Assembly: GCA_902788275.1 (NCBI GenBank)
Contig: CADAJV010000005.1
Span: 40,609 to 104,608, forward strand
DNA: 64,000 nucleotides
DNA from: an uncultured Bacteroidales bacterium
Lineage (GTDB): Bacteria; Bacteroidota; Bacteroidia; Bacteroidales; Bacteroidaceae
Reading direction: 5' to 3'
This document shows, piece after piece, positions 1,150-63,705 of the stretch; position 1 is the stretch's first letter, and each line of letters starts with the position of its first letter. Made by a program: the position numbers and the translations under genes. The notes under the pieces were generated by a model. The model searched no databases and had not been told where the DNA came from. It worked only from the letters and a program-made list of their open reading frames with translations.

Positions 1150-1152
1150 GTA

Positions 1153-1257
1153 AGAATTGAAGAATGGAAGAATTGAAGAATTGAAGAATGGAAGAATGGA
1201 AAAGTTGAAAAGTTGAAAAATTGCAATTTCAATCCTTCCGTTCTTCAACTTTTTAAA
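1153..1257. repeat. GAATTGAA/GAATGGAA tandem array folding back on its own reverse complement (centre TTGCAA at 1221-1226)
   Basis: Direct reading: gaattgaagaatggaagaattgaagaattgaagaatggaa...ttgcaa...ttcaatccttccgttcttcaac. Confidence 0.85.
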
Positions 1258-1267
1258 CTCTGTAATA

Positions 1268-1585
1268 ATGCTTAGTCCAGTCATTCTCATATTAGTCTTT
1301 GTGGCCAGCACCGTTGTAGGCTACTTCATTATCCGCCAGGTGCCGAGCCTGCTGCATACGCCGTTAATGTCGGGCATGAATGCCCTGTCGGGAGTTACCA
1401 TCGTGGGGGCCATAGCCGCCACGGGCATAGCCCTGCTCAGCGGCGACGGAGTGCTGGCGCAGGTGGCCGGCGGACTGGCCATAGTGCTGGCGGCCGTCAA
1501 TGTGTTTGGCGGCTTCGGTGTTACCCACCGCATGCTGATGATGTTTCATAAAAAAGGTAAGAAACCGTTAGCCAGTAACAGTTAA
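1268..1585 (+). CDS. pntAB: NAD(P) transhydrogenase alpha subunit part 2 (small membrane subunit)
   Basis: 105-aa hydrophobic protein with 3 predicted TM helices between pntAA and pntB, the typical split-alpha arrangement. Confidence 0.85.
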   Translation: MLSPVILILVFVASTVVGYFIIRQVPSLLHTPLMSGMNALSGVTIVGAIAATGIALLSGDGVLAQVAGGLAIVLAAVNVFGGFGVTHRMLMMFHKKGKKPLASNS

Positions 1586-1592
1586 AAAAGTA

Positions 1593-1713
1593 GTTAAGAA
1601 GTTAAGCCAATAGTCAGATTTCTGAAAAATTTTTGGTAACTCCTAACTCCTAACTCCTAACTCCTAACTCCTAACTCCTAACTCCTAACTCCTCACTCCT
1701 CACTCCTCACTCC
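1593..1713. repeat. GTTAAGAA short array plus junction (1593-1615), then 8x TAACTCC + 3x TCACTCC heptamer array (1637-1713) ending 6 nt before the pntB ATG
   Basis: Counted directly: 11 consecutive heptamers, 77 bp. Confidence 0.9.
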
Positions 1714-1719
1714 TTAGTC

Positions 1720-3243
1720 ATGGACATCTATCAAGTAATTATTAGCAGCATCCTTGCTCTCACTGTCTTGCTGGGCATCTCGATGATGAGCCGCGTCAAG
1801 ACCGCCGTGGCTGGCAACTTCCTGTCGGCGGTAGCCCTCCTTACGGGAGTCGGCGTTACCCTGCTGTTCAATGAAGTTATCTCCGCCTGGACCGTATGGG
1901 TGGCCCTCATCATCGGAGCCCTTATTGGCAGCGTCATGGCCCGGCGTGTCAAGATGATACAGATGCCGCAGACCGTGGCACTCTTCAATGGCCTGGGCGG
2001 CGGGGCCTCCGCACTGGTGGGCCTGCTCTCCGTTATGGGCATAGGTTTCAGCGGCACACAGCTGGCCGCCATCGAGGCCGGCGGCTACTGGCCTTTTGTG
2101 CGGCTCACCGGGTTGCTGGCCATTGCCGTGGGCGTCATCACGCTGGTAGGCTCGCTGGTGGCTGCCGGCAAGCTTCACCGCCTGTTGCCGCAGCGCCCCA
2201 TCGTGTGGCCCTTCCATTCCGTGCTTACGCTAGTCTTCCTGTTGCTTACCCTGGCAGGCATAGTCGTTGGGACCCTCAATTATCCATTTGCTCCTCTTGC
2301 CACCGCCTTGGCTTCGGCCCTCTTCGGCCTCTACTTCTCCGTCAGGGTGGGTGGGGCCGACATGCCCATCACCATCTCGCTGCTCAACTCGCTCTCAGGA
2401 GTGGCCGGCTCCATAGCCGGCATGGCCATAGGTGATGTCTTCCTGGTGGCCGTGGGCGGCATAGTGGGAGCCTCCGGCCTGCTGCTCACGCAGATAATGA
2501 GTCGCGCCATGAACCGCAGCCTCCTCAGCATACTGGCAGGAGGAAAAGAGCAGAAGGCCAATAAACATATTGTCGATTCAGAAAAATACATACAACGCAT
2601 TATGGACTTGGAAAAGAAAATAAAAGAACTCGAGGAGATGGTCAAGAACCTTGAGGGGCGTGTGCAGACCCTCACGCTGCAGGTGGATAAGGCAGAGGAA
2701 AAGAATGCGCCAACCACCGCCCCCCAATCTCCAGCCAAGACAGCAGCCTCCGTACTCTCTGAGGCTAAGGATGTCATCATAGTGCCTGGCTACGGCATGG
2801 CCTTGGCCCAGGCGCAGCACCAGGTGCGCCAGCTGGCCGACAAGCTGGAAAGCCGCGGTGCCCGCGTGCGCTACGCCATCCATCCCGTGGCAGGCCGTAT
2901 GCCTGGCCACATGAACGTGCTGCTGGCCGAGGCCGATGTGGACTATGAGCAGCTCTACGAGATGGAGGCCATCAACGATGACTTCAAGAGCTGCGATGCT
3001 GCCGTGGTCATCGGTGCCAACGACGTGCTCAACCCCGCCGCCCGCAATGCCGAGGGCACGCCCATCTACGGCATGCCCGTGCTCAGCGTTGACGAAGCCC
3101 CCGAGGTGATAGTGTGCAACTACGACCTCAAGCCCGGCTATGCCGGAGTGGAGAATCCCCTCTACAAGCGCCAGCAGGGCGTTTACCTGGAGCTCGGCGA
3201 TGCCAAGGAGACCCTTATGCGCCTGATAGGCGAGATAGGGTAG
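1720..3243 (+). CDS. pntB: NAD(P) transhydrogenase beta subunit with extended coiled-coil linker
   Basis: Multi-TM dII domain followed by dIII (VIIVPGYGMALAQAQH, HPVAGRMPGHMNVLLAEA). About 45 extra residues lie in the dII-dIII linker. Confidence 0.9.
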   Translation: MDIYQVIISSILALTVLLGISMMSRVKTAVAGNFLSAVALLTGVGVTLLFNEVISAWTVWVALIIGALIGSVMARRVKMIQMPQTVALFNGLGGGASALVGLLSVMGIGFSGTQLAAIEAGGYWPFVRLTGLLAIAVGVITLVGSLVAAGKLHRLLPQRPIVWPFHSVLTLVFLLLTLAGIVVGTLNYPFAPLATALASALFGLYFSVRVGGADMPITISLLNSLSGVAGSIAGMAIGDVFLVAVGGIVGASGLLLTQIMSRAMNRSLLSILAGGKEQKANKHIVDSEKYIQRIMDLEKKIKELEEMVKNLEGRVQTLTLQVDKAEEKNAPTTAPQSPAKTAASVLSEAKDVIIVPGYGMALAQAQHQVRQLADKLESRGARVRYAIHPVAGRMPGHMNVLLAEADVDYEQLYEMEAINDDFKSCDAAVVIGANDVLNPAARNAEGTPIYGMPVLSVDEAPEVIVCNYDLKPGYAGVENPLYKRQQGVYLELGDAKETLMRLIGEIG

Positions 3244-3299
3244 GCGTCAGAAGCTCAGCACAAATTTCTACGGGCTCAGTATTATTTTCCTTGGGTCTT

Positions 3300-3356: not shown

Positions 3357-3357
3357 G

Positions 3358-3505
3358 AGAGCCTTGAAAAAAAATTTAACTCCGTGGAAAAATAATCTAA
3401 CTCCGTGGAAAAAAAATCTAAGAGCCTTGAGCCGTCATTTTCAAGGCTCTTAGATTTCATTTCGAGGCTCTTAGTTTGCGTTTCGAGGCTCTTAGTTTGC
3501 GTTTC
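3358..3505 (+). repeat. 'TCTAAGAGCC word' element, copy 1
   Basis: 2x CTAACTCCGTGGAAAAA, a central palindrome TCTAAGAGCCTTGAGCCGTCATTTTCAAGGCTCTTAGA, and 2x TTTCGAGGCTCTTAGTTTGCG (3460-3480, 3481-3501). About 85% identical by eye to the reverse complement of 54192-54313. Confidence 0.85.
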
Positions 3506-3510: not shown

Positions 3511-3563
3511 GGTTAGTTTAGAAGTTTAGAAGTTAAGAAGTTAAGCCGTTAGTCAAGACTATG
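3511..3563. repeat. GAAGTTWA array plus junction motif GCCGTTAGTCAAGACTATG
   Basis: ggttagtttagaagtttagaagttaagaagttaagccgttagtcaagactatg. Confidence 0.85.
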
Positions 3564-3640
3564 TCGCTTCGCTCTCACCTCCGCTTTTCGTGCTCCGCTT
3601 CGCGACAGCACTGCTTCGGTTCGCGATACCTTCGGCATTC
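3562..3640 (+). repeat. GCTTCGCTCTC...CCTTCGGCATT core element, copy A (candidate structured RNA)
   Basis: Shares its 5' end TGYCGCTTCGCTCTC and 3' end TCGCGATRCCTKCGGCATT with 14954-15141 and 54881-54962. Contains CTTCGG and GCTTCGC motifs. Confidence 0.75.
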
Positions 3641-3644
3641 GTCC

Positions 3645-3765
3645 TCTATCTCCTTCTATCTCCTTCTATCTCCCTCTATCTCCTTCTATCTCCTTCTATC
3701 TCCTTCTATCTCCTTCTATCTCCTTTTATCTCCTTTTATCTCCTTAACTTCTTAACTACTAAACT
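3645..3765. repeat. About 10x TCTATCTCCT decamer array (3645-3745), then CTTAACTTCTTAACTACTAAAC, which is the inverse of the 3511-3546 array
   Basis: Counted directly. The outer arms 3511-3546 and 3744-3765 are reverse complements and enclose the core element. Confidence 0.9.
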
Positions 3766-3866
3766 TTTTTCTTGGATTGCCATGTAAGGTTGCTGAAAAT
3801 TGCACATCTTTGGCGGTAAATGTGTAATTCCTTGGTGTTTTTTACGTGTGTATGAGAATTTATTCC

Positions 3867-5881: not shown

Positions 5882-5885
5882 AATG

Positions 5886-5917
5886 TAGTTAAGAAGTTAA
5901 GAAGTTAAGCCGATAGT
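5886..5917. repeat. GTTAAGAA x3 array plus junction GCCGATAGTA abutting the four-helix-bundle gene start
   Basis: gtagttaagaagttaagaagttaagccgatagt. Its inverse partner is at 6301-6400. Confidence 0.85.
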
Positions 5918-5918
5918 A

Positions 5919-6296
5919 ATGACTAACCAATTTCAGAATATTGTTGCATGGCAGAAGGCGCATGAATTTGTTCTTGTTGTGTATAAGACAACTGGCGCTT
6001 TTCCTGACAGTGAGCGTTTCGGGCTTTGTTCGCAGTTCCAGCGTGCAGCTGTCTCCATAGCAGCGAATATCGCTGAAGGGTACAAAAAACTAAGTAGGCA
6101 AGACAAGTTGCGTTTTTATAATATTGCACAAGGTAGTCTGGAGGAATGCCGATACTATATTATTCTTTCCAAAGACCTTGGTTATGTCAACGAATCAACT
6201 TACCTCTGTTTGTATACGACTCTTGAAGAGTGCAGCAAAACTCTCAATGCGTATTGCAAAGGTGTTGTTGACAATAATTTCAGCAATATTTTATAA
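5919..6296 (+). CDS. Four helix bundle protein (23S rRNA intervening-sequence protein / Avd-like family), copy 1
   Basis: AWQKAHEFV..., QFQRAAVSIAANIAEGY, GSLEECRYY motifs typical of TIGR02436/PF05635. Visibly more AT-rich than its neighbours. About 65% identical by eye to 22716-23084. Confidence 0.85.
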   Translation: MTNQFQNIVAWQKAHEFVLVVYKTTGAFPDSERFGLCSQFQRAAVSIAANIAEGYKKLSRQDKLRFYNIAQGSLEECRYYIILSKDLGYVNESTYLCLYTTLEECSKTLNAYCKGVVDNNFSNIL

Positions 6297-6300: not shown

Positions 6301-6400
6301 GACTAACTTCTCAACTTCTTAACTTCTAAAATCTCAAGCCTCAAACATAAAAACGGTAATGGCTTAACTTCTTAACTACTTAACTTCTTAACTTCTAAAC
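6301..6400. repeat. TTAACTTC arrays (two blocks) with CTCAAGCCTCAAAC spacer; inverse of 5886-5917
   Basis: gactaacttctcaacttcttaacttctaaaatctcaagcctcaaac...ggcttaacttcttaactacttaacttcttaacttctaaac. Confidence 0.85.
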
Positions 6401-6421
6401 TTTAAAAAAACCCAACCAACT

Positions 6422-8190: not shown

Positions 8191-8306
8191 TATAGAGGGA
8201 GATAGAAGGAGATAGAGGGAGATAAAGGGAGATAGAGGGAGATAGAGGACGATAGTCATGACTAACGGCTTAACTTCTTAACTTCTTAACTACTTAACTT
8301 CCAGAC
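8191..8306. repeat. About 6x GGAGATAGAG array, junction GATAGTCATGACTAACGGC (8251-8269), then TTAACTWC array ending CCAGAC
   Basis: Direct reading. 8251-8306 is the reverse complement of 8538-8575. Confidence 0.9.
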
Positions 8307-8308
8307 TA

Positions 8309-8501
8309 ACTCATACATCTCCGACTACGTTATCATACGCCCCCGCCCTTTCAGGGCACCCCCTCTATAGAGGGGGTGCCGCAAGCCGTTCTGCTCTTAG
8401 TTTGCCGGGAGCCGACTCCCCCTCTAAGATAGAGGGGGTGGCCCATCGGGCCGGGGGCGTATGATAACACAGGAGTATGATAACGAGGGGCGTATGATAA
8501 A
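8309..8501. repeat. MITE-like palindromic element with TATCATACGCCCCCG / CGGGGGCGTATGATA termini, copy 1
   Basis: Terminal inverted repeats are reiterated 2-3 times. Internal hairpins CCCCCTCTATAGAGGGGG and CCCCCTCTAAGATAGAGGGGG. Related copies at 10272-10487 and 43729-43908. Confidence 0.8.
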
Positions 8502-8520: not shown

Positions 8521-8636
8521 GGAGATAGAGGGAGATAGTCTGGAAGTTAAGAAGTTAAGTAGTTAAGCCGTTAGTCTTTCTTCTTTCGAACATTTCAAAT
8601 CTGTAAACGGTAAACGGTAAACTGTAAGCCGTAAAC
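8521..8636. repeat. GGAGATAGAG x2, GAAGTTAA array + GCCGTTAGTC junction, TTTCTTCTTTCGAAC spacer, 5x GTAAACG array
   Basis: Direct reading. 8563-8602 recurs as its reverse complement at 49598-49636. Confidence 0.9.
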
Positions 8637-10271: not shown

Positions 10272-10487
10272 GTATCATACGCTCCGTTTATTTTATCATA
10301 CATCCCCGTCTACGTTATCATACGCCCCCGGCAGCAAGCTGCCACCCCCTCTATCTTAGAGGGGGAGTCGTCTCCCTGCTTACCTTAAAGGCAGAATGGC
10401 GTGTCAGGCAAATAGGCAGAATGGCGTGTCAGGCTCCCCCTCTAAGATAGAGGGGGTGCCCTGAAAGGGCGGGGGCGTATGATGGTG
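10272..10487. repeat. MITE-like TATCATACGCCCCCG-terminus element, copy 2
   Basis: Three left-end reiterations, GCAGCAAGCTGC and CCCCCTCTATCTTAGAGGGGG hairpins, an internal 2x GGCAGAATGGCGTGTCAGGC direct repeat, and right end CGGGGGCGTATGATGG. Confidence 0.8.
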
Positions 10488-13667: not shown

Positions 13668-13867
13668 CTCTATCTCCTTCTATCTCCTTTTATCTCCTTT
13701 TAACTCCCTCTATAACCTATAACCAATAACCTATAACCAATAACCTATAACCTTTCATCTATCTCCTTTTAACTCCCTCTATAACCTATAACCAATAACC
13801 TATAACCTTTCATCTATTTCCATAATTATCTATAATTTCATTTCTCAAATTTCAAGTTTCAAATTTA
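13668..13867. repeat. Composite array block: TCTATCTCCT, two tandem copies of a 55-69 bp module (13691-13759, 13760-13814), then AAATTTC-type array
   Basis: The module TATCTCCTTTTAACTCCCTCTATAACCTATAACCAATAACCTATAACCTTTCATC is read twice in tandem. Related copies at 49821-49857, 51989-52032, 52060-52089 and 55636-55672 (reverse complement). Confidence 0.9.
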
Positions 13868-14882: not shown

Positions 14883-14947
14883 ATTGATAGTTGATAGTTG
14901 ATAATTGATAGTTGATATTGATAGTTAGCGTTTCCTCCGGACTTGGC
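14883..14947. repeat. TTGATAG array followed by half-site TCCGGACTTGGC
   Basis: attgatagttgatagttgataattgatagttgatattgatagtta...tccggacttggc. Confidence 0.9.
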
Positions 14948-14953: not shown

Positions 14954-15141
14954 TGCCGCTTCGCTCTCAAAGGCTCCTGCAAGTTTCGCTCCGGCTTCGC
15001 CGACGGCAAAAGAGCCGCTCTCTCAAAGAGAGCATTGATCAAGAGCAATTTTTCGCTCAAAGAGAACATTGCTCGAAGAGCAACTTCTCGCTCAAAGAGA
15101 ACATTGCTCGAAGAGCAACTTCTCGCGATGCCTGCGGCATT
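14954..15141 (+). repeat. GCTTCGCTCTC...GCCTGCGGCATT core element, copy B, expanded by about 3 copies of a 35-bp internal tandem repeat
   Basis: The ends match copies A and C. TCGCTCAAAGAGAACATTGCTCGAAGAGCAACTTC occurs at 15053-15087 and 15088-15122, with a diverged copy at 15019-15052. Confidence 0.8.
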
Positions 15142-19519: not shown

Positions 19520-19551
19520 CCTCCTAACTCCTAACTCGTAACTCCTAACTC
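19520..19551. repeat. TAACTCC heptamer array directly upstream of the AraC-family gene ATG
   Basis: cctcctaactcctaactcgtaactcctaactcaa ATG. Confidence 0.85.
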
Positions 19552-22653: not shown

Positions 22654-22704
22654 AAGAGAAGTAAGGAAAAAAGGAGAAAAAGGAGTAAGGAGTAAGGGAG
22701 TAAG
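22654..22704. repeat. GGAGTAAG-type array (SD-like UAAGGAG reiterated) upstream of the four-helix-bundle gene
   Basis: gaagagaagtaaggaaaaaaggagaaaaaggagtaaggagtaagggagtaag. Its inverse partner is at 23112-23160. Confidence 0.9.
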
Positions 22705-22715
22705 TTATTTAGTCA

Positions 22716-23084
22716 ATGACTAGTTCTTTCAAAGATATCATCGCGTGGCAGAAGGCTCACCAGTTTGTCCTGCTTGTTTACAAGGCAACAGCGTGCTTTC
22801 CCGATTGCGAGAAGTTTTCTTTGGTCTCTCAGTTTCAGCGTGCCGCGGTTTCAATACCTGCCAATATTGCAGAGGGATACCGCAAGGATGGTGTGGGAGA
22901 CAAACTCCGTTTCCTTAATATATCTCAAGGTAGCCTTGAAGAGTGTCGCTATTATATTTTGCTTTCCAAAGACTTGGGATACATCTCCGAAGAAACTTAT
23001 AATATTCTACAGGAAAACATAGAAGAGACAAGCAAACTACTAAACGCCTATTATACTGCAATACGCAGTAATCATGGAAGATAA
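22716..23084 (+). CDS. Four helix bundle protein (23S rRNA IVS protein / Avd-like family), copy 2, inserted between groES and groEL
   Basis: AWQKAHQFV, QFQRAAVSIPANIAEGY and GSLEECRYY motifs. AT-rich relative to groES and groEL. Confidence 0.85.
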   Translation: MTSSFKDIIAWQKAHQFVLLVYKATACFPDCEKFSLVSQFQRAAVSIPANIAEGYRKDGVGDKLRFLNISQGSLEECRYYILLSKDLGYISEETYNILQENIEETSKLLNAYYTAIRSNHGR

Positions 23085-23097: not shown

Positions 23098-24807
<1,710 letters not shown>

Positions 24808-24811: not shown

Positions 24812-24878
24812 TAAGGAGTAAAGGAGTAAGGAGTAAAGGAGTAAAGGAGTAAGGGAGTAAGGGAGTAAAGGAGTTAAG
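24812..24878. repeat. GGAGTAAR array (about 8 units) immediately after the groEL stop
   Basis: taaggagtaaaggagtaaggagtaaaggagtaaaggagtaagggagtaagggagtaaaggagttaag. Confidence 0.9.
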
Positions 24879-25196: not shown

Positions 25197-25327
25197 GGAG
25201 CAGCGAGTAATCAACTTACTCCTAACCTCCTTACTCCTTACTCCTAAAAAATAAGAACCAACTGGAGTTGAAGTCAGGAATTGCAGCGAGTAATCAACTT
25301 ACTCCTAACCTCCTTACTCCTTACTCC
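25197..25327. repeat. Two further copies of the 48-bp GGAGCAGCGAGTAATCAACTTACTCCTAACCTCCTTACTCCTTACTCC module (25197-25244, 25283-25327)
   Basis: Near-identical to each other and to 23112-23159. Confidence 0.9.
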
Positions 25328-25930: not shown

Positions 25931-27169
25931 ATGAAACATCTGCTTGCTATAATAACAATGGCCGTGACTATCCTGGCCCAGGCAGATGATATCTACAGGG
26001 AAGACGTAAATGCTGACAATGCGGTTAACAGTGCCGACATTGTCAGCATTTATAATTATATTCTCAGTGGTGAGGGGCTCACCTTCGATGCCGCCGATGT
26101 TAACGGCGATGGCAGTGTCAATAGCGCCGACGTGGTCAGCATATATAATGGTATCATCTCCGGCCGCAAGATAGTCAATGACTTTAAGCCCCATTATGAG
26201 ACCGCCGCTGCCACCCTGGCTCCAGGCGGACGGTTGCGGCTCTCCGAGCACTATGTGCGCAAAAACTCCCATATCCATGCCACCCTGCGCCTCACTGAGG
26301 GCTGCCTTTCTGAAGGGACAGTCACCGTAGGGCGAGGCTACGATGCATGGTATGGTGCTTACCTGCAGATAGATGCCGACAGTGTGCGTCTCTTTCGTCG
26401 CACTGAGAGCGAGGAAATACGGGTGCGCACAGAGGCCCACGGCCTGATACTGGCCGATAGTCTCAGTGTCAGCATTGACTGCATAGACACCAAGGCGACC
26501 ATAGTCCTGAGTGCCGGAGGCCGCACCTACACTTTCACCCATAGCTGGAATGGCGGCGGCGCCCCCTTTCTGCTCAACCAGACCGGCCACCCTCTGCAGG
26601 CAACCATCCTCTATGCCAACCCCGACTTCCTCTGCGATATCTGGCTGCTGGGCGACAGTTACCTTACCACCTCTGGCAACCGCTGGATTTATTATATCGG
26701 GCAGCATGGCTTCGGCCCTTGGCTGGCTGATCACTGTGCCGCCAACACCGGCGAAAAGGCGCTGCGCGACTTCAAGGCTGCCCTCCGTATGGGCACACCC
26801 CGCTATGCCCTCTGGCTGATAGGTATCAACGACCGCGGCGACATTGACGCTCCCACCAGCCGCTGGCTTGCTGCAACAAAGGAGTTTATCTCCATCTGTG
26901 AGGCCAACGGCATTACCCCCGTGCTCCAGACCATTCCCAATACCTTTATCACCAGTCTCCAGCAGCTAAAGACTCATCAGTATAAGACAGACTGGATTCG
27001 TTCCAGCGGCTACCGCTATATTGATATCGCCGCCGCCATAGGTTCAAAGCCCGATGGCACTTGGGCAGAGGGCATGCAGGGTCCCGACGGCATCCATCCC
27101 ACAGCTGAGGGTGCCATGGTCATGGCGGAGCAGGTGCTCAAGGATTTTCCCGAAATCGTTAACCAATAA
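25931..27169 (+). CDS. Secreted SGNH/GDSL hydrolase with N-terminal dockerin-like repeats
   Basis: Signal peptide. DVNADNAVNSADIVSIYNYIL and DVNGDGSVNSADVVSIYNGII repeats. SGNH blocks LLGDSY, GINDRG, DGIHPT. Confidence 0.75.
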   Translation: MKHLLAIITMAVTILAQADDIYREDVNADNAVNSADIVSIYNYILSGEGLTFDAADVNGDGSVNSADVVSIYNGIISGRKIVNDFKPHYETAAATLAPGGRLRLSEHYVRKNSHIHATLRLTEGCLSEGTVTVGRGYDAWYGAYLQIDADSVRLFRRTESEEIRVRTEAHGLILADSLSVSIDCIDTKATIVLSAGGRTYTFTHSWNGGGAPFLLNQTGHPLQATILYANPDFLCDIWLLGDSYLTTSGNRWIYYIGQHGFGPWLADHCAANTGEKALRDFKAALRMGTPRYALWLIGINDRGDIDAPTSRWLAATKEFISICEANGITPVLQTIPNTFITSLQQLKTHQYKTDWIRSSGYRYIDIAAAIGSKPDGTWAEGMQGPDGIHPTAEGAMVMAEQVLKDFPEIVNQ

Positions 27170-27230
27170 CCGTTAACCATTGACCATTGACTATTGACCA
27201 TTGACCGTTAGCCGTTAACCGTTAATCGTT
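27157..27230. repeat. CGTTAACC/CATTGACC array overlapping the last 4 codons and stop of the SGNH gene
   Basis: cgttaaccaataaccgttaaccattgaccattgactattgaccattgaccgttagccgttaaccgttaatcgtt. Confidence 0.9.
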
Positions 27231-27258
27231 TGCCGGTGGATTTCCTTACTTGGCGTGT

Positions 27259-38883: not shown

Positions 38884-38916
38884 CTGTTAACCGTTAACCA
38901 ATAACCGTTAAACGTT
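38881..38916. repeat. CCGTTAAC array starting at the stop codon of the giant gene
   Basis: taactgttaaccgttaaccaataaccgttaaacgtt. Confidence 0.9.
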
Positions 38917-38942
38917 CTAAATAGTACATAAATCGTACATTG

Positions 38943-39006
38943 TAAATAGCGAAAGCGTGTTAAGAGTAAAAAGGCTTTACTCCTTTACTCCTTACTCTTA
39001 AAAAAC
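38943..39006. repeat. TAAATAGCGAAAGCGTGTTAA word plus TAAGAGTAAA / CTTTACTCC...TTACTCTTA hairpin array
   Basis: The 20-nt word recurs at 54046-54066. The CTTTACTCC units belong to the GGAGTAAG family. Confidence 0.8.
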
Positions 39007-40018: not shown

Positions 40019-40311
40019 AAGTAAAGAGAATCTCTGCCGGGAAAACGATGGAAGTCGGTTTCATACAAAAAAATGAAGGAATAACATCATGGATAATGTT
40101 AAATGGATAGTAAATTGCGTCGGGAAGATGGCTTCTCTACGCGCGGAGTCCTCTTTTTGATGTGGAGGCTTGGCCTTTGCTCTGAATAAGACAGGTATAT
40201 AGCTCCCATAAGACAATGCGCACATCATAAGACGGGAGCTGTGCGCGCATTGTTGATCGGCTAAAAAAGAATTAAAAGATTGAAAAATAGAAAAGGATAA
40301 TAAGGTATTGT

Positions 40312-40935: not shown

Positions 40936-40937
40936 TA

Positions 40938-41060
40938 GAATTGAAGAATTGAAGAATTGAAAAACTAAAGAATTAAAAATTGAAGAATTAAAGAGTTGAA
41001 AAATTGAAGAATTTAAGGATTTAAGAATTGAAGTTCATTTTTCCATTCTTCAACTTTCCT
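40938..41060. repeat. GAATTGAA/GAATTAAA array with short inverted 3' arm (TTCCATTCTTCAAC)
   Basis: agaattgaagaattgaagaattgaaaaactaaagaattaaaaattgaagaattaaagagttgaaaaattgaagaatttaagg... Confidence 0.9.
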
Positions 41061-42501: not shown

Positions 42502-42592
42502 TATTTGAAATTTGAAATTTGAAATTTGAAATTTAGCCAAGTCCGGACTTGGGGAGTATAATACCTCTAACCTATAACCTATAACCTATAAC
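42502..42592. repeat. TTTGAAA array, perfect 16-bp palindrome CCAAGTCCGGACTTGG (42536-42551), CTATAACC array
   Basis: Direct reading. Confidence 0.9.
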
Positions 42593-42610
42593 CATTTACA
42601 CGTTTATTGC

Positions 42611-49569: not shown

Positions 49570-49849
49570 GTTTACAGTTTATAGTTTACAGTTTACGGTT
49601 TGAAAAGTTCGAAAGAAGAAAGACTAACGGCTTAACTTCTTAACTACTTAACTTCTTAACTACTAAAACGTTTACGGTTTACCGGACTTGGCTTCTATAA
49701 CCAATAACCAATAACCAGTTGATAATTGAAAGTTGATAATTGAGAATTACTTTCCGGACTTGGCTTCTATAACCTATAACCAATAACCTATAACCTTTTT
49801 ATTTTGTCAAGGTATAATATCTATAACCTATAACCAATAACCTATAACC
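49570..49849. repeat. 280-bp concatenation of six array types with two CCGGACTTGGC half-sites
   Basis: GTTTACR (49570-49601), junction + TTAACTWC (49631-49669), CCGGACTTGGC (49682-49692, 49754-49764), ATAACCAA (49695-49716), GTTGATAAT (49718-49748), CTATAACC (49767-49795, 49821-49849). Confidence 0.9.
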
Positions 49850-49864
49850 TTTCATTCATCACCC

Positions 49865-50701: not shown

Positions 50702-50702
50702 A

Positions 50703-50850
50703 AAAAAATTAAAAAATTAAAAAGTTAAAAAATTAAAAAATTGAAGAACCATGAAAAATTGAAAAATTAAAAAATTGAAGGACTGAAGAGTTGTATTTTC
50801 GTTTTTTCTACTTTTCCGTTTTTCCGTTTTTCCATTCTTAAAATTCTTTT
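50703..50850. repeat. AAAAATTR/GAAAAATT array followed by its imperfect inverse (TTTTCCGTTTTTCC)
   Basis: Fills the 162-bp gap between the ATPase and DUF4435 genes. Confidence 0.85.
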
Positions 50851-50863
50851 TTTAGAAAAAGAA

Positions 50864-51869: not shown

Positions 51870-52104
51870 GTTTACGGTTTACAGATTAGTAGTTAAGAAG
51901 TTAAGAAGTTAAGAAGTTAAGAAGTTAAGCCGTTACTCTGGAAGTTAAGAAGTTAGGTAGTTAAGTAGTTAAGCCGTTACTCTTGACTATCTCCCTCTAT
52001 AACCTATAACCAATAACCTATAACCTTTCATCTGTCCTCTATCTCCCTTTATCTCCCTCTATCTCCTTTTAACTCCCTCTATAACCTTTCCTCTATCTCC
52101 CTCT
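51870..52104. repeat. Concatenated arrays: GTTTACR, 2 blocks GTTAAGAA + GCCGTTACTC junctions, CTATAACC module, TCTATCTCCY array
   Basis: Direct reading. Shares modules with 13668-13867 and 55555-55725. Confidence 0.9.
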
Positions 52105-54158: not shown

Positions 54159-54191
54159 CTTCAATTTTTCAACTTTTCCATTCTTCAATTA

Positions 54192-54313
54192 TTCTGAGAG
54201 CCTTGGCGGCAATTCTAAGAGCCTTGAAACCAAATCTAAGAGCCTTGAAAATGACAGCTCGAGGCTCTTAGATTTTTTTTCCACGGAGTTAGTTTATTTT
54301 TCCACGGAGTTAG
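54192..54313 (-). repeat. 'TCTAAGAGCC word' element, copy 2 (inverted relative to copy 1)
   Basis: Its reverse complement aligns along the whole length with 3372-3478. Confidence 0.85.
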
Positions 54314-54368
54314 ACCACAGCTAAAAGTGTGGTCTTTTTGTATGTTTTTTTGCAGGCTGCCTTTTTTC

Positions 54369-55547
54369 CTACAGCAAATCGATGAGGCGGTCGATGTCTT
54401 CTGAGCGGGTGGCCCACGAGGTGGCGAAGCGTATGGTTACGCGGTCGCCATGTGGTGGTTCCCACTGGTCGTAGGTGAGGTGCTCCTTGAGCCGGGCGGC
54501 CTGCTCAAGGCTTACCTCTACGAACTGCTGGTTGGTGGGGGAGTGGTAGGGCAGCCGGTAGCCCTTGTCTATAAGGGCCTGCCTCAGGCGCATGGCTTCC
54601 ACTATGGCGTGGCGGCAGCCTTGGTAATAGGGGGTGGCGGTCAGGGTGTCGCCTTCCAACAATGTGTCGAACTGGAGGGCTGTAGTCCATCCCTTGGCGA
54701 TCAGGGCACCGTGACGCTTGATATGGGTGAAGAAGCGTGAGTCGGCCGCGGGACGCGGTATGATGGCTGCCTCGCCAAACATTGTGCCGCACTTGGTGCC
54801 TCCGATATAGAAGGCGTCACACAGGCGAGCAATGTCGGGCAGGGTGGGCAATTGAGAATTGATAGTTGATAGTTGATAATTGCCGCTTCGCTCTCGCGGC
54901 TCTTTGAAGTCGGCACCGGCTCCGCCGACAGCCGACGAGCCGCTCGCGATGCCTTCGGCATTGAGAATTGCCCATTGACCATTGACTGACACGCCTGAGG
55001 CTCCGAGGCCGTAGCCGAGGCGTGCGCCGTCGAGGTAGAGGGGTAGGTGGTGCTTGCGGCATACGGCGCTGATGGCCTCCATCTCGGAGAGGGTATAGAG
55101 GGTGCCGTACTCAGTGGGATGGGTGATATACACCATGCCGGGTGGCACGATGTGGGGCCAGTTGGGGTCGGTGTAGTAGGTGGTGACGTAGTTGTCCACC
55201 TGCTCAGCTGTTATCTTGCCTTGGGTGGAGGGCAGGGTGAGCACTTTGTGGCCGGTAAACTCTATGGCTCCCGACTCATGGATGGCTACGTGAGCGCTGT
55301 CGGCACTCAGCACTCCCTCAAAGCTGCGCAGGAGGTAGTTGACCATGACCATGTTGGTCTGTGTGCCGCCGCAGAGAAACTGTACCTCGGCATCGGGGCA
55401 CTGGCAGAGGCGGCGCACTTTCTCGCGTGCCGACTGGCTGATGGGGTCGGTGCCGTAGCCTGGCATCTGGCAATCCTGCATCTGCTGCATACGTTGCAGT
55501 ATGAGCGGATGGCAAATATTCATGTAGTCGCTGTCAAAATGTAGCAT
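54369..55547 (-). CDS. Threonine aldolase / beta-eliminating lyase family PLP enzyme carrying a ~48-aa in-frame repeat-element insertion
   Basis: DSDYMNICHP, GGTQTNM, LYLDGARLGYGL and FYIGGTKCG (PLP Lys) motifs. The residues GVSVNGQWAILNAEG...SGNYQLSTINSQ are encoded by repeat DNA. Confidence 0.8.
   Translation of the reverse strand: MLHFDSDYMNICHPLILQRMQQMQDCQMPGYGTDPISQSAREKVRRLCQCPDAEVQFLCGGTQTNMVMVNYLLRSFEGVLSADSAHVAIHESGAIEFTGHKVLTLPSTQGKITAEQVDNYVTTYYTDPNWPHIVPPGMVYITHPTEYGTLYTLSEMEAISAVCRKHHLPLYLDGARLGYGLGASGVSVNGQWAILNAEGIASGSSAVGGAGADFKEPRERSGNYQLSTINSQLPTLPDIARLCDAFYIGGTKCGTMFGEAAIIPRPAADSRFFTHIKRHGALIAKGWTTALQFDTLLEGDTLTATPYYQGCRHAIVEAMRLRQALIDKGYRLPYHSPTNQQFVEVSLEQAARLKEHLTYDQWEPPHGDRVTIRFATSWATRSEDIDRLIDLL
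54849..54990 (+). repeat. Core element copy C with TTGATAG and CATTGAC flanking arrays, located inside the aldolase CDS (antisense to it)
   Basis: 54881-54962 matches copies A and B at both ends. ATTGAGAATTG occurs as a direct repeat at 54851-54861 and 54960-54970. Confidence 0.85.
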
Positions 55548-55554: not shown

Positions 55555-55725
55555 GGTTATTGGTTGTAAATGAAAGGTTATAGGTTATAGGTTATTGGTT
55601 ATAGATATTTTAGTCGGGTGAGTCTTCATATGAATGGTTATAGGTTATTGGTTATAGGTTATAGAGGGAGATAGTCATGAGTAACGGCTTAACTACTTAA
55701 CTACTTAACTTCTTAACTTCCAGAG
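55555..55725. repeat. GGTTATWG arrays (two blocks), AGAGGGAGATAGTCATGAGTAACGGC junction, TTAACTWC array
   Basis: Direct reading. It is the reverse complement of modules at 13691-13814 and 51989-52032. Confidence 0.9.
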
Positions 55726-56518: not shown

Positions 56519-56538
56519 GAAAGGATGTTAAGGGAAAA

Positions 56539-56584
56539 GGTCGGACAGGTCAGACAAGTCGGACAGGTCAGACGTGTCGGACAT
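56539..56584. repeat. 5x GTCRGACAR nonamer array
   Basis: ggtcggacaggtcagacaagtcggacaggtcagacgtgtcggacat. Ends at the stop codon of the DAHP synthase gene. Confidence 0.9.
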
Positions 56585-57658: not shown

Positions 57659-57925
57659 ATAGTTGATAGTTGATAGTTGATAATTGATAATTGTTTACGG
57701 TTTACGGATTTGAAATTGAACATTTAGGAGATAGAGGGAGATAGAGGGAGATAGAAGGAGATAGAAGGAGATAGAGGACGTTAGTCTTGACTATTTAGAA
57801 GTTAACTTCTTAACTTCTTAACTACTAAAACGTTTACGGTTTACCGGACTTGGCTAAATCTCAAACCTCAAACTATTCATTTAATTTTTTCAATTTTTTA
57901 ATTTTTTAATTTTTCAATTTTTTGC
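57659..57925. repeat. Concatenated arrays: GTTGATAR, GTTTACG, GGAGATAGAR x5, junction, TTAACTWC, GTTTACG + CCGGACTTGGC, CTCAAAC, TTTTTYAAT
   Basis: Direct reading. The last array (57877-57925) extends into the 3' end of the aminotransferase CDS (QKIEKLKN*). Confidence 0.9.
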
Positions 57926-60491: not shown

Positions 60492-61394
60492 ATGCCATCA
60501 CTCAAACAGCAGGTAATAGCCACCATGAAGTCGCGCGACACCGAGGGGCCCTTTGAGCTCTATGTAACGCGTACCCCCGGCTATCTGTGGGCCCTGCTGT
60601 TTCGCAGGCTCAGGGTGCACCCCATAGTGGTGACGGTCGTCTCCATGCTCATAGGTTGCGCCAGCGGCTACTTCTTCTACCTGCCTGAGCTGAAGTATAA
60701 CTTGGTAGGCATGCTGCTGCTCATCTGGGCCAACTGGTACGACTGTGCCGATGGCCAGCTGGCTCGCATGACAGGCAAGACCAGCCAGATAGGCCGGGTG
60801 CTCGACGGATTTGCAGGCGACCTCTGGTTCTTCTGTATCTATTCAGGCATAGCCGAACGTCTGCGTCCCGAGTGGGGATTGTGGAGCTGGCTGCTGGTGG
60901 TAGTGGCAGGAGTGTTTTTCCATGCCCGCCAATGTTCGCTGGCCGACTATTATCGCAATGCCCACCTCTACTTCATTGGCGCGGCAAACGAGCTGGAGCG
61001 TTCAGCTGACATTGAGGCCGAGTACCGCTCACTGCGATGGATTTCCAAGGACTGGTTTCACAAGCTCTACCTGATGTGCTACGCCAGCTACACCCGCGGA
61101 CAGGAAAACCCAACCCCGCAGTTTCAGAAACTATATAATAATGTTCGCGAGCGATACGGCCACAGCCTGCCATCCGAGCTGCGCACCCAATACCGCACTC
61201 TCAGCCTGCCGCTCATGCCGCTTTGCCAGATACTGACATTCGATGCCCGCGTAGGCGTACTCTTCCTCTCTATGGTGGTGGGTCTGCCGTGGTTATATCC
61301 CGTCCTTGAAATCACCGCCTTCGAGGCCCTGCGCATCTACGTCAACCGCCGCCACGAGAAAGGATGCAAGACAATCTTAGGATTGAAGGATTGA
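60492..61394 (+). CDS. CDP-alcohol phosphatidyltransferase family protein
   Basis: DCADGQLARMTGKTSQIGRVLDGFAGD matches D-x2-DG-x2-AR-x8-G-x3-D-x3-D. Multi-TM protein. Start set at MPSLKQQ. Confidence 0.8.
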   Translation: MPSLKQQVIATMKSRDTEGPFELYVTRTPGYLWALLFRRLRVHPIVVTVVSMLIGCASGYFFYLPELKYNLVGMLLLIWANWYDCADGQLARMTGKTSQIGRVLDGFAGDLWFFCIYSGIAERLRPEWGLWSWLLVVVAGVFFHARQCSLADYYRNAHLYFIGAANELERSADIEAEYRSLRWISKDWFHKLYLMCYASYTRGQENPTPQFQKLYNNVRERYGHSLPSELRTQYRTLSLPLMPLCQILTFDARVGVLFLSMVVGLPWLYPVLEITAFEALRIYVNRRHEKGCKTILGLKD

Positions 61395-61440
61395 AAAATT
61401 GAAAAATTGAAAAATTGAAAAACGGATTGAAAAATTGAAG
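61380..61440. repeat. GGATTGAA/AAATTGAA array; its first units encode the C-terminus (LGLKD*) of the upstream CDS
   Basis: ggattgaaggattgaaaaattgaaaaattgaaaaattgaaaaacggattgaaaaattgaag. Its inverse partner is at 61854-61888. Confidence 0.9.
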
Positions 61441-61451
61441 TTGAGACAGCG

Positions 61452-61808
61452 ATGAAGGATATTGTTATTGCAAATCTAAGCATTGAATTTGCCCTACGCA
61501 TAGTCAATCTATACAAAAACCTTTGCAACGAGAAAGGAGAATTTACGATGTCTAAGCAATTGCTTCGGTGCGGAACAAGTATTGGGGCAAACGTGGCAGA
61601 AAGCGAACATAGTCAAAGTAAAGCAGATTTCATAACAAAACTATATATCTCCCTCAAAGAAGCTAATGAAACAAAATATTGGCTCACACTTCTATCGAGA
61701 GCCCAGTATCTAACGGATACAGAATATGAGTCGCTGATGAAGGACTTGCGAATTATTATAGGTACATTAGTAAACACCATTAAGAAAACAAAAGAAAACC
61801 TGACTTGA
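61452..61808 (+). CDS. Four helix bundle protein (23S rRNA IVS protein / Avd-like family), copy 3 (divergent subfamily)
   Basis: SKQLLRCGTSIGANVAESEHSQSKADFITKLYISLKEANETKYWL is typical of TIGR02436. AT-rich. Confidence 0.85.
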   Translation: MKDIVIANLSIEFALRIVNLYKNLCNEKGEFTMSKQLLRCGTSIGANVAESEHSQSKADFITKLYISLKEANETKYWLTLLSRAQYLTDTEYESLMKDLRIIIGTLVNTIKKTKENLT

Positions 61809-61853
61809 CAAGGACTGAAGAACACAAGGAGTGAATAGATTGCCCATTTTAAC

Positions 61854-61888
61854 TCTTCAATTCTTCAATTTTTCAATTTTTCAATTTT
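61854..61888. repeat. TTCAATTY array, inverse of 61380-61440
   Basis: ctcttcaattcttcaatttttcaatttttcaatttt. Ends 4 nt before the next ATG. Confidence 0.9.
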
Positions 61889-61892
61889 AATC

Positions 61893-62591
61893 ATGCGAAA
61901 CATAGCACTCATTTTAGCCGGTGGCAGGGGCACACGCTTCAACTCCATGCGCCCCAAGCAGTACATAGAAGTGGACGGCAAGCCCGTCCTCTCCTACACC
62001 ATGCAGGCCTTTCAGCAGCACCCGCATGTAACTGACATCTACGTGGTATGCTCGCCCGAGTGGAACAGCTATGTCGAGGCCCAGGCCGGCCACAACAGGT
62101 TCACCAAGTTTCGCGCCTGCATATCCTCTGGCAACACCTCCTACCGCTCCATGTATAACGGCATAAAGGCCCTCACCACTATGGGAGTGGAGCCCGATAG
62201 TGTCATCATGGTGCACGATGCCGTGAGGCCCTTGGTCTCCGCCGACACCATCAGCAACAATATATCAGTGTGCCGTGAGTATGGCAACGCCATCACCGTC
62301 ATATACAGCAACGAGTCCTATATGCGCGTTGACGGCTCCATAGAAGCCGCCGGCTTTGCCATGCGTGAGGAGTACATGCGCGCACAAACACCCCACACCT
62401 TTCTGCTGGAGACACTCAGTGCACTCATCGACAAGGCCGACGGGCAGGGCATCGACTGCTCGCAGTCACTCTTCACCCTGGCCAATGAACTAGACTACAA
62501 GCCCCTCTACCTCGCCCAGGGCAACATGGAGAATTTCAAGATTACCCAGCCCCAGGATCTCAAATTTTTCCGGGCGCTGAAAAACCTGTAA
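61893..62591 (+). CDS. IspD/TarI-family cytidylyltransferase
   Basis: LILAGGRGTRF...PKQY N-terminal motif and the usual length. The substrate cannot be assigned from sequence alone. Confidence 0.7.
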   Translation: MRNIALILAGGRGTRFNSMRPKQYIEVDGKPVLSYTMQAFQQHPHVTDIYVVCSPEWNSYVEAQAGHNRFTKFRACISSGNTSYRSMYNGIKALTTMGVEPDSVIMVHDAVRPLVSADTISNNISVCREYGNAITVIYSNESYMRVDGSIEAAGFAMREEYMRAQTPHTFLLETLSALIDKADGQGIDCSQSLFTLANELDYKPLYLAQGNMENFKITQPQDLKFFRALKNL

Positions 62592-62592
62592 G

Positions 62593-62745
62593 AGAGAGAT
62601 TTACGGGAAGCCAAAAATAATCGCGAGAAGCCGAAATTTAATCGCGCAGGGACAGACCCTCCCTTCGATTATTTTTTGCCTCCTCGCAATAATGTCACGG
62701 CTCCTCGAAATATTGCGTTGGTTTCTTGCAATTATTATCCGTCTC
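62593..62745. repeat. 'TAATCGCG word' element, copy 2 (looser)
   Basis: AAAAATAATCGCGAGAAGCCGAAATTTAATCGCGCAGG, then TCGATTATTTTTT, CGCAATAATG and TTGCAATTATTAT inverted words. Confidence 0.6.
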
Positions 62746-62816
62746 TTCGCAGTGAAACGGGGGCCGGGGGGGTAACGAACGTTACCTCGTTGCCAGATGA
62801 ACTTTTCTGTGTGTTC

Positions 62817-63518
62817 CTACACGCCCTCGTAGTCGTCGATGGTGTCGTTGAGGAAGTCGATAAAAGGTTTGCCGCTCTCAAAGCGGCGGGCCAGCTGGTC
62901 GAGCCAGTCGGGGGCCTGGAAGAAGTCAACGGGCAGGGCGCATCCACTGGCGTACATTCGCGGCTGTAGATAGTGAGGGTAGGGGAAGTCCTTGGGAAAT
63001 CCCTTGGGCATGGTCTTGAGCAGATCGTAGCCAAGGGTGGGGAACGCCTTGCGGAAACGGGGCTCCTCGGCTATCTCGCGGAAGGTGGTGAGGTCTTCCA
63101 CGATGGACATGCGCACCTCGCGCAGGATGTTTGACGGCAGATACCATGTGCCGGCGGCCATGAACGGGCCGTTGAGTCCCTCCCATTGGTCGTCGGTGTC
63201 CGGCGAGGGCGGCTGCACGTGAAAGTAGTAGCCGGCGTGGAAGCTCTGCTTGCCCTTGGCGCTGATATAGCAGCCCAGGTGGGTCTTGTAGGGCGACTTG
63301 TCCTGCGAGAAGCGTACGTCGCGGTAGATGCGGTAGGTGCAGTCTTTTACGTCGAGGTGACTGACGGTGGGGTCAAACTGGCTGATGCGCACCAGCAGAG
63401 CTTTCACTATTTCGTTGAATTGCGAGCGCACTTGGTCGTACCAGGCGCGGTGGGACTGAAACCACTCTCTATTGTTGTTGGCTGCCAGCTCACGGAGGAA
63501 TTGGAATATTTCTTGCAT
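62817..63518 (-). CDS. DUF2461 (TIGR02453) family protein
   Basis: MQEIFQFLRELAANNNREWFQSHRAWY start, YRIYRDVRFSQDKSPYKTH motif. Confidence 0.8.
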   Translation of the reverse strand: MQEIFQFLRELAANNNREWFQSHRAWYDQVRSQFNEIVKALLVRISQFDPTVSHLDVKDCTYRIYRDVRFSQDKSPYKTHLGCYISAKGKQSFHAGYYFHVQPPSPDTDDQWEGLNGPFMAAGTWYLPSNILREVRMSIVEDLTTFREIAEEPRFRKAFPTLGYDLLKTMPKGFPKDFPYPHYLQPRMYASGCALPVDFFQAPDWLDQLARRFESGKPFIDFLNDTIDDYEGV

Positions 63519-63547
63519 GAATGTTGGGGTTTGCGGTTAACGCTCAG

Positions 63548-63682
63548 TCATGAGTCGAGAGTCAAGGGTCGTGAGTGTTAAACGGTTATTGTTTAACGAT
63601 TATTGGTCATTGGTTATCGGTTAACGGTTAACGGTTATGGGTTATAGAATTTCTCTAACCTCTAACCTATAACTTCTAACCT
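63548..63682. repeat. GTCRWGAGT short array, GGTTAWCG/GGTTATTG array, CTCTAACC array
   Basis: Direct reading. Lies between a candidate -7 box (63706-63713) and the DUF2461 start, so it is probably leader RNA. Confidence 0.85.
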
Positions 63683-63705
63683 TTCCGCGTTATTGGTCTG
63701 TGCTG

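Follow-up and report, generated by a model that had tools for sequence, protein, structure and literature searches.

In the DNA considered here, a window of 64,000 nucleotides (64 kb) of contig CADAJV010000005.1 from an uncultured Bacteroidales bacterium, tandem arrays of short units take up roughly a quarter of the intergenic DNA, and the question that this locus raises is what such arrays are and from what they derive. The answer regarded as probable, if not by a wide measure of confidence, is that they are the arms of cassettes resembling the intervening sequences (IVS) of 23S rRNA genes, together with rearranged derivatives of these arms devoid of an open reading frame (ORF), lodged, and greatly multiplied, in the operon spacers and untranslated regions (UTRs) of a Prevotella-like rumen lineage of Bacteroidaceae. 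The window is bacterial, with a G+C content of ~52%; RGIG8180, a metagenome-assembled genome (MAG) from water-buffalo rumen labelled Bacteroidaceae, has a GroEL 99% identical to the one encoded here, and the next relatives are Prevotella, Prevotellamassilia and Alloprevotella-like MAGs of rumen and gut. Pfam matches, combined with the genes called on syntenic contigs, gave a curated list of 49 genes, outside which 15% of the window remains as non-coding DNA; no Rfam family, rRNA included, is found across the whole window at gathering thresholds, and a tRNA/tmRNA scan of the window gave zero matches.

Three genes of the window lie inside inverted pairs of arrays, and all three, left unidentified by the original prediction made from the letters of this DNA, encode the four-helix-bundle 23S rRNA intervening sequence protein (S23p, hereafter IVP) of families PF05635 and TIGR02436 (PF05635 E-values from 1e-28 to 1e-38, TIGR02436 being matched as well), with XCC0516 (2GSC) and 2RLD as relatives in the PDB. 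The identity of the enclosed genes therefore ties the arrays to the documented S23p-encoding intervening sequences of rRNA. IVP1 is found between etfA and the acyl-CoA dehydrogenase gene acd, IVP2 between groES and groEL, and IVP3 between a CDP-alcohol phosphatidyltransferase gene and ispD; in each case a C-free array precedes the start codon and a complementary G-free array follows the stop codon, and in the minimum free energy (MFE) folds of the three cassettes the arms are paired over 24, 34 and 50 bp. A role in defence is unsupported, PADLOC returning no match for IVP, and, as to the idea of a phage vector, viral contigs hold only 5 distant IVP matches.

The same anatomy recurs across phyla. 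When metagenome contigs were scanned, 80 IVP loci at 53-72% identity came to light, their sources being rumen, gut, soil, sediment and sludge; array density amounts to 143.7 bases/kb within 150 nt of the ORF as against 8.7 in other parts of these loci, a 16-fold enrichment. An upstream array is present in 52/73 and a downstream array in 47/73 of these loci, with period 7 predominant and a median of ~4 copies; the upstream arrays contain more G than C in 42 of 46 cases, and the downstream arrays more C than G in 24 of 30. The two arms of a cassette covary: among at least 25 different arm units, the own arms are complementary at 12 or more of 14 positions in 21/31 cassettes, compared with 7.5% of non-partner pairs, and the mean duplex energy of own flanks is -62 versus -48 for non-partners (p=1e-8). 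The covariation is illustrated by the etfA-IVP-acd locus, which is kept across Prevotella-like taxa with IVP proteins 60-85% identical, while its arm units differ (GAAGTTAA, GGAGTAAG, AGTAGTTA or AGGAAGTTAAA), yet each pair is complementary; the commonest IVP homologue of gut Prevotella (>1000 contigs) is also found there, with arms GGAGTAAG/CTTACTCC versus GAAGTTAA/TTAACTTC in the window. In a related Prevotella (locus L195), two cassettes occur in one operon, etfB-IVP-etfA-IVP-acd (IVP genes at 995-1375 and 2501-2869), the first with arms GGAGATAA/TTATCTCC, the two units being GGAGATAA and GGAGTAAG. The IVP homologues carried by plasmids belong mostly to Nostocales and share the anatomy of the window: in Trichormus, Nostoc and Aulosira, TCAGGAG/TCAGAAG heptamers (4-5 copies) precede the ATG, the stop codon being followed by a short complement, and in Picosynechococcus an IVP gene between cmr2 and cmr3 has arms GGAGATA/TATCTCC.

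The arrays themselves are largely as the original prediction had described them. Tandem Repeats Finder (TRF) reports ~100 short-period arrays, of period 7, 8 or 10, at the expected places, and 52 of the 55 intervals that had been listed contain at least 2 copies of the unit assigned to them (with no more than 1 mismatch); period 7 accounts for 31 of the 61 window arrays analysed. That the arrays are intergenic, coding DNA being nearly free of them, is borne out by the share of arrays (6-11 bp unit, at least 3 copies, 80% identity or more), which is 23.3% of the non-coding versus 0.7% of the coding bases, non-coding DNA simulated with a second-order Markov model giving 0.2%, and the claim that three quarters of the gaps longer than 30 bp contain one is close to the 28/41 counted. 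The vocabulary is indeed recurrent, since an exact 10-mer is common to another array in 55/61 cases, where unit-shuffled controls give a mean of 7.0 and a maximum of 17, and the blocks are modular, arranged in differing orders and joined by conserved junction motifs (GACTAACGGCTTAAC, 9 matches vs 0.08 expected; CCGGACTTGGC, 9 vs 1.2); they vary in order, number and length across loci, with no defined element length or consensus. Two details had to be corrected: the units given as GGTTATAG and CGTTAACC are in fact the 7-mers CTATAAC and CGTTAAC, and the CGTTAAC arrays at 27157 and 38881, taken for a unit and its complement, are direct repeats.

What does not hold is the statement that a forward array is usually matched nearby by its reverse complement. 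A related inverted array is present within 700 bp in only 16/61 cases, nearby related pairs are inverted 9 times and direct 9 times, and inverted pairing is a minority pattern among the arrays. Long stems enclosing a gene, a repeat or nothing are predicted for some pairs (24 to 69 bp in MFE folds), whereas many array-rich gaps fold like their shuffles, with z-scores of ~0; the general rule that arrays mainly form hairpins was consequently discarded. The strongest regularities, namely three-letter composition, the order of C-free and G-free arrays and the G-free leaders (see below), had been missed. All in all, the earlier observation is partly confirmed and its interpretation partly supported.

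Since low-complexity DNA is in general difficult to assemble from short reads, an assembly or sequencing artefact had to be considered; its probability is negligible. Contigs with identical proteins come from many rumen metagenomes, assembled by different groups, and nearly all their intergenic gaps have the same length to the base (at least 6 samples, different assemblers); this agreement of independent contigs shows that the repeats are no product of assembly. Moreover, the arrays obey gene boundaries and polarity rules, and related arrays exist in finished cyanobacterial plasmids.

The polarity rules are as follows. Three-letter arrays, C-free or G-free on the given strand, make up 45/61 of the total, and inside a gap the order is C-free then G-free in 13 transitions and the reverse in 2 (p=0.007), identically on both strands (one of the two exceptions is formed by 8521..8576 and its partner at 8260-8312). 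Because C-free arrays precede G-free ones in the gaps, ordinary genes receive a G-free leader array: in 17/18 non-IVP genes the array adjacent to the start is G-free in the sense orientation (p=1.4e-4), many of these arrays ending 2-6 nt before the ATG. IVP genes, whose leaders are C-free in 3/3 cases, are the only ones to break this rule. Arrays following a stop codon are C-free 10 times and G-free 7 times, a difference that is not significant. Sense RNA is less structured than antisense RNA in 14/17 array gaps, and most of these gaps lack the TAnnTTTG -7 box of Bacteroidetes and are therefore probably spacers internal to operons; a -7 box is present in the rbr and ariA gaps, where it precedes the arrays and so places them in the 5' UTR. 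Bacteroidota leaders are known to lack the Shine-Dalgarno sequence, their translation being sensitive to structure (PMC3155529, PMC6847099), and it is proposed that start-adjacent arrays are G-free because translation of this kind, which demands an unstructured leader, filters the copies; the G-free leader rule would thus be imposed by Bacteroidota translation, and it offers a natural experiment on initiation without Shine-Dalgarno pairing. A separate observation, unexpected for Bacteroidales, is the strong Shine-Dalgarno-like leader AAAGGAGGAAACAATCATG found ~20 nt upstream of groEL at four related loci (L012-L015).

Several features link the solo arrays to the cassettes. The unit families GAAGTTAA, GGAGTAAG and GAATTGAA, which serve as IVP arms in the window, rank with the most frequent families of solo arrays too; GGAGATA is an IVP arm in L195 and L186, and TAACTCC in L142, L155, L157 and L178, so that five IVP-linked families cover 30/55 of the intervals originally listed. 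The link extends to DNA outside the arrays: GATAGTNATGACTAAC, a non-array junction that includes the start of IVP1, is found at 5 other loci (7 matches vs 0.26 expected). Of the 23-nt IVP2 3' module, the rbr leader contains two exact copies and that of strain L001 three, and two copies precede groEL in L003. In a sibling species (L008, GroEL 98% identical) the groES-groEL and groEL-rbr spacers measure 30 and 130 nt and contain neither arrays nor IVP, and in more distant relatives the same spacers are short, A-rich and array-free; among 80 related loci the array density is mostly 0-5 bases/kb, and values of 16-45 are confined to the species of the window, L007 and L009. Most solo arrays would accordingly have descended from cassettes by loss of the ORF, duplication of modules and recombination.

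A different explanation would class the arrays with ordinary simple-sequence repeats of the short tandemly repeated repetitive (STRR) or TAACTGA type, generated in place, independently of IVP, by replication slippage to which the lineage would be prone, and kept as G-free, unstructured leaders or protein-binding sites, with IVP genes merely tending to adjoin such DNA or to insert into it. Periods 7 and 8 predominate, in line with the surveys of prokaryotic simple-sequence repeats to which PMC4679880 refers, strains differ in copy number, most arrays are unpaired, and the 17/18 G-free leaders, together with the weaker structure of sense RNA in 14/17 gaps, agree with such a role, TAACTGA repeats being likewise forward-oriented before start codons. 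This explanation, which is considered possible but rather unlikely, leaves without an account that many loci have identical multi-unit vocabularies and non-repeat junctions in common, that arrays are enriched 16-fold beside IVP genes in loci otherwise poor in them, that the two arms covary, and that arrays and IVP are jointly absent from the empty groES-groEL site of L008.

Strain comparison reveals considerable polymorphism. The array of GGAGTAAA after groEL has 8.4, 6.4 or 4.9 copies in different strains, and the one before coaE 12.2 vs 7.9; an 86-bp element, consisting of two arrays around CCAAGTCCGGACTTGG (a perfect 16-bp palindrome at their junction), is present or absent between strains, and just one strain has a 185-bp core element inside an AAATTTC array. 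Core elements of this family, starting with GCTTCGCTCTC and ending with GAT(A/G)CCT(T/G)CGGCATT, lie between a C-free and a G-free array at 3555-3644, 14955-15139 and 54883-54962; the copy at 14955 is a recent nested insertion, as it is absent in strain L001. Inverted terminal arrays are seen at ~6 loci, many elements being flanked by unrelated arrays.

Such presence-absence differences, the nested insertions, the inverted arms with conserved junctions and the in-frame insertion in a threonine aldolase gene, which recalls the Rickettsia palindromic elements, might suggest that the arrays are the termini of non-autonomous transposons comparable to miniature inverted-repeat transposable elements (MITEs), mobilized by a transposase in trans, with IVP as passenger cargo. 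This is judged improbable: no transposase is found among the window ORFs scanned against Pfam (a scan that stops short of every ORF); no target-site duplication is recognisable between filled and empty sites at the polymorphic yajC-nusB and DHDPS-NANM spacers, the flanks of which are diverged or repetitive; there is no fixed element length or consensus; the arms are often non-complementary; and the etfA-IVP-acd position is kept over deep divergence (60-85% protein identity). This conservation of IVP positions argues for vertical inheritance over frequent transposition.

The preferred reading, that of IVS-like cassettes and their derivatives, can be put as a sequence of steps. Of these, the anatomy of the cassette and its breadth across phyla, the covariation of the arms, the polymorphism between strains and the polarity rules are established by observation, and the remainder is inferred. 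A complete cassette comprises a purine-rich C-free array (7-8 nt units, ~4 copies), a short junction, an IVP gene of ~120 aa, a second junction and a complementary G-free array; on the polycistronic transcript the arms could pair into a stem of 24-50 bp looping out the IVP gene, and this stem, by analogy with rRNA intervening sequences, may be a substrate of RNase III, with which its length is compatible. A cassette looped out in this way could then occupy essential spacers such as groES-groEL without disrupting them. Arrays would gain and lose units by slippage and modules would be duplicated to new sites, the filter of their survival being presumably Bacteroidota translation, with its lack of Shine-Dalgarno pairing and its need for an unstructured leader.

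A number of points weigh against this reading. Three IVP genes stand against ~61 arrays, only 16 of which have an inverted partner nearby, and an IVP link is undemonstrated for seven unit families (CTATAAC, TTGATAG, GTTTACG, AAATTTC, CGTTAAC, CTCAAAC and GTCGGACAG). In many elements the arrays on the two sides are not complementary, as in TTGATAG...AAATTTC and ATTTGAA...ACCTATA. In the groEL-rbr spacer two arms lie on opposite sides of a conserved promoter; a shared transcript is therefore unnecessary there, and the two were not inserted as one piece. Among arm mismatches no sense-strand excess of G.U is seen (22 of G.U type vs 28 of A.C type), so that selection on RNA, as opposed to DNA, is undemonstrated and pairing may persist via DNA or through recent copying. 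RNase III processing of the cassettes is argued by pure analogy; no mechanism of mobility, enzyme or target-site duplication was found among the Pfam-scanned window ORFs or at the polymorphic sites; and the basis of the census is one 64-kb window with 6-22 kb loci of relatives. A broader proposal is advanced only tentatively: PF05635 genes may define mobile "operon intervening sequences" that span phyla, each with its own 7-8 nt unit in complementary arms, the pentameric protein recognising ~4-5 cognate copies and driving the processing, spread or expansion of the arms; the STRR arrays of cyanobacteria, the TAACTGA arrays of Beggiatoaceae and the arrays of the present Prevotella-like lineage would all be footprints of this single system, and the rRNA IVS no more than its best-known special case.

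The coordinates of the cassettes and of the other array features are collected in the table.

Table. Cassettes, arrays and associated elements of the 64-kb window, in order of position.
Position	Strand	Feature
1152..1223		AAGAATTG x9, C-free on + strand, 2 nt after pntAA stop
1588..1615		AAGAAGTT x2.4 and junction (GTTAAGCCAATAGTC), after pntAB stop
1637..1714		TAACTCC x11, G-free leader ending 5 nt before pntB start
3515..3554		GAAGTTAA-type 5' arm and junction GTTAAGCCGTTAGTC; partner 3743-3766
3555..3644		Core element GCTTCGCTCTCA...GATACCTTCGGCATTC, between two arms
3645..3766		TCTATCTCCT x10 then CTTAACTT x3, both G-free; 3' arm
5887..5918	+	IVP1 5' arm, (GAAGTTAA)n + GCCGATAGTA, C-free
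5919..6296	+	IVP1 gene, PF05635/TIGR02436, between etfA and acyl-CoA dehydrogenase gene
6302..6402	+	IVP1 3' arms, (TTAACTTC)n, G-free; acyl-CoA dehydrogenase leader
8192..8312		ATAGAGGGAG x5.7, junction GATAGTCATGACTAACGG, CTTAACTT x4
8521..8576		GGAGATAGAG, GAAGTTAA x3, junction; inverted partner of 8260-8312
8603..8636		GTAAACG x4.9
13669..13866		TCTATCTCCT x4.5, CTATAAC x14, AATTTCA x4.7, all G-free (+), upstream of DHDPS
14884..14947		TTGATAG x6, C-free, and junction CCGGACTTGGC
14955..15139		Core element GCTTCGCTCTCA...GCGGCATT, nested, containing 35-nt repeats; not present in L001
15140..15174		TTCAAAT x5, G-free leader of NANM-SSF gene
19521..19551		CTCCTAA x4.4, G-free leader ending 2 nt before AraC-type gene
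22663..22715	+	IVP2 5' arm, GGAGTAAG-type, C-free, after groES stop
22716..23084	+	IVP2 gene, PF05635/TIGR02436, between groES and groEL
23115..23160	+	IVP2 3' arm, GCAGTGAGTAATCAA + (CTTACTCC)n, G-free groEL leader
24813..24878		GGAGTAAA x8.4, after groEL stop; 6.4 and 4.9 copies in other strains
25200..25327		IVP2 3'-arm module x2 in rbr 5' UTR (x3 in L001)
27157..27230		CGTTAAC/CATTGAC x10.6, overlapping GDSL gene end; direct repeat of 38881-38916
38881..38997		TAACCGT x5 (direct partner of 27157), then CTTTACTC x3
40265..40295		AAAAGATTG x3.6
40937..41033		AGAATTGA x12; on - strand G-free coaE leader; 7.9 copies in L001
42053..42145		ATTTCACGATTTGACA x2.2, AAACCTC x3.4, between ybbR and yajC
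42503..42593		ATTTGAA x4.6, palindrome CCAAGTCCGGACTTGG, ACCTATA x4.4; entire element absent in L001 and L003
49042..49101		TTCAATTT x7.5, G-free leader of S4-domain gene
49570..49850		Six arrays (GTTTACA, CTTAACTT, ATAACCA, TTGATAA, CTATAAC x2) and both junction motifs, filling ariA 5' UTR
50703..50833		AAAAAATT x9, TTTTCCGT x2.8, between ariA and ariB
51870..52104		GTTTACG, AGTTAAGA x10 (two junctions), CTATAAC x4.3, CCTCTATCTC x6.5
54846..55001		Composite element (TTGATAG array, GCTTCGCTCTC...GGCATT core, CATTGAC array), in frame in threonine aldolase gene
55575..55718		AGGTTAT x4.3 twice, junction GATAGTCATGAGTAACGG, CTTAACTA x3.9
56538..56583		AGGTCGGAC x5.1
57659..57923		ATAGTTG x5, GTTTACG x2, GGAGATAGAG x5, TTAACTTC x2.8, junction CCGGACTTGGC, CTCAAAC x2, TTCAATTT x5.4
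61377..61451	+	IVP3 5' arm, GATTGAAA/AATTGAAA, C-free
61452..61808	+	IVP3 gene, PF05635/TIGR02436, between CDP-alcohol phosphatidyltransferase gene and ispD
61840..61892	+	IVP3 3' arm, TTCAATTT, G-free ispD leader
63583..63682		CGGTTAT x9, CTCTAAC x4.3

Some of these regions deserve a further comment. The threonine aldolase gene that hosts the composite element (54369-55547, - strand) is lengthened by ~52 residues (183-234) with respect to PDB 1SVV, and another of the few coding arrays, TCAATGG x5.7 without imperfections, lies in the 3' end of the ORF of a GLUG-motif protein (29181-29220). The latter belongs to an 11.7-kb segment (27157-38916), also encoding a 3114-aa protein, with CGTTAAC/CAATAAC arrays in direct orientation at its two borders, of which that on the left replaces the final codons of the GDSL gene; L001 and L003 have neither segment nor arrays. 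At 49865-51856 a two-gene PARIS anti-phage system is found (AriA, E=1e-59; AriB, E=1e-56), with a leader of 314 nt packed with arrays and a trailer likewise rich in them, the left CTTAACTT and right AGTTAAGA arrays being mutually inverted. Two repeat families of another kind are present. A G+C-rich palindromic family, TTATCATACGCCCC ... CCCCCTCTATCTTAGAGGGGG (8329-8468 and 10273-10480), separate from the arrays, forms the strongest predicted structure of its gaps (z ~ -10 to -14), one copy being located within a CTTAACTT/GAAGTTAA stem; repeats of 21-nt period, AATCTAAGAGCCTTGA and TCAAGGCTCTTAGATT, with TCTAACTCCGTGGAAAAA, occur at 3366-3505, 54191-54314 and 27306-27387, the first two loci being mutual mirror images able to form hairpins.

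As to known repeats, the arrays share with repetitive extragenic palindromic (REP) sequences and bacterial interspersed mosaic elements (BIMEs) their abundance in transcribed spacers and a capacity for hairpins, evident in the CCAAGTCCGGACTTGG palindrome; REP sequences, however, are imperfect palindromes of 20-40 nt accompanied by REP-associated tyrosine transposases (RAYTs), whereas the window units are non-palindromic tandem 7-10-mers and no RAYT (Y1 transposase) gene is found among the window ORFs scanned against Pfam. The original prediction was right in excluding these families and the enterobacterial repetitive intergenic consensus (ERIC), which differ in unit size and organisation, as well as clustered regularly interspaced short palindromic repeats (CRISPR), in which repeats of 23-50 nt alternate with unique spacers, the window units being head-to-tail and without spacers. 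BrickBuilt, a minisatellite-containing MITE of Porphyromonas gingivalis, reportedly has a ~22-bp internal repeat, fixed terminal inverted repeats and target duplications. Like the elements of the window, it lies between genes in a member of the Bacteroidales and unites tandem repeats with inverted-repeat ends (PMC4596501); in the window, in contrast, the 7-10 bp arrays are themselves the arms, neither fixed ends nor duplications are seen, and the elements are no classical MITEs.

Complete novelty was too strong a claim, heptamer arrays just before start codons having been described already: TAACTGA direct repeats occur in Beggiatoaceae, Cyanobacteria and some Bacteroidetes (MacGregor 2015, PMC4679880), in "forward" sets ending a few nt before starts, with occasional reverse sets just after stops, and the downstream IVP arms CTACTGA, TTACTGA-like and CTCCTGA resemble them; the TAACTGA study makes no mention of S23p and draws no link with IVP (PMC4679880). 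Tandem TAACTGA or STRR1-3 units (CCCCAGT, TTGGTCA, CAACAGT) are absent from the window. The STRR heptamers of Cyanobacteria were reportedly described by Mazel et al. in 1990. With both types the window arrays share the intergenic position of tandem heptamers, strain indels in 7-nt steps and a patchy phylogenetic spread; they differ in that those genomes are dominated by one unit, while the window has a dozen, with junctions, three-letter composition and a fixed order.

IVP genes have also been noted in cas operons (PMC3936711), wedged, as here, in tight spacers between co-directional operon genes; there they were taken as candidates for Cas-associated functions, and flanking arrays were not described. 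Apart from this note and the Coxiella IVS, the part of the literature that was searchable yielded no account of PF05635 cassettes flanked by arrays in the spacers of operons, or of a link between these and heptamer arrays. So far the IVP family has been described mainly as an insert of rRNA genes, to which operon-spacer arrays now appear to be tied. Such elements amount to about a quarter of the intergenic DNA in a rumen lineage, occur inside essential operons, vary between strains and are found even in frame in an enzyme gene; on account of this abundance, of their operon sites and of their strain variation, they are likely to affect operon expression, strain typing, and the assembly or binning of metagenomes where the abundant Prevotella relatives of gut and rumen are concerned.

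The closest parallel is the 23S rRNA IVS of Coxiella burnetii, in which an S23p ORF follows 2-3 strain-variable GACAGAT heptamers between inverted-repeat flanks and is excised by RNase III, the whole counting as a selfish element whose means of movement is unknown (PMC4990558). The window cassettes differ from the S23p IVS of Coxiella and Leptospira (PMC4990558) in their location between protein-coding operon genes and not in helix 25 or 45 of rRNA, in their arms, which are long arrays, in the many copies devoid of an ORF, and in that excision by RNase III, shown for the rRNA IVS, would apply to them by analogy only. They have in common with them the PF05635/TIGR02436 ORF, its position within inverted repeats closed by a stem of at least about 20 bp, and the purine-rich tandem heptamers of variable copy number directly before the start. 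If the reading proposed here is true, the sporadic 23S rRNA IVS with their S23p ORFs, the multi-copy four-helix-bundle genes wedged in operons and the pre-start heptamer arrays of cyanobacteria, giant sulfur bacteria and Bacteroidota, so far regarded separately, would be one type of element, and for each of them cleavage of the stem, specificity of the protein for its repeat and a correlation of copy numbers would be predicted.

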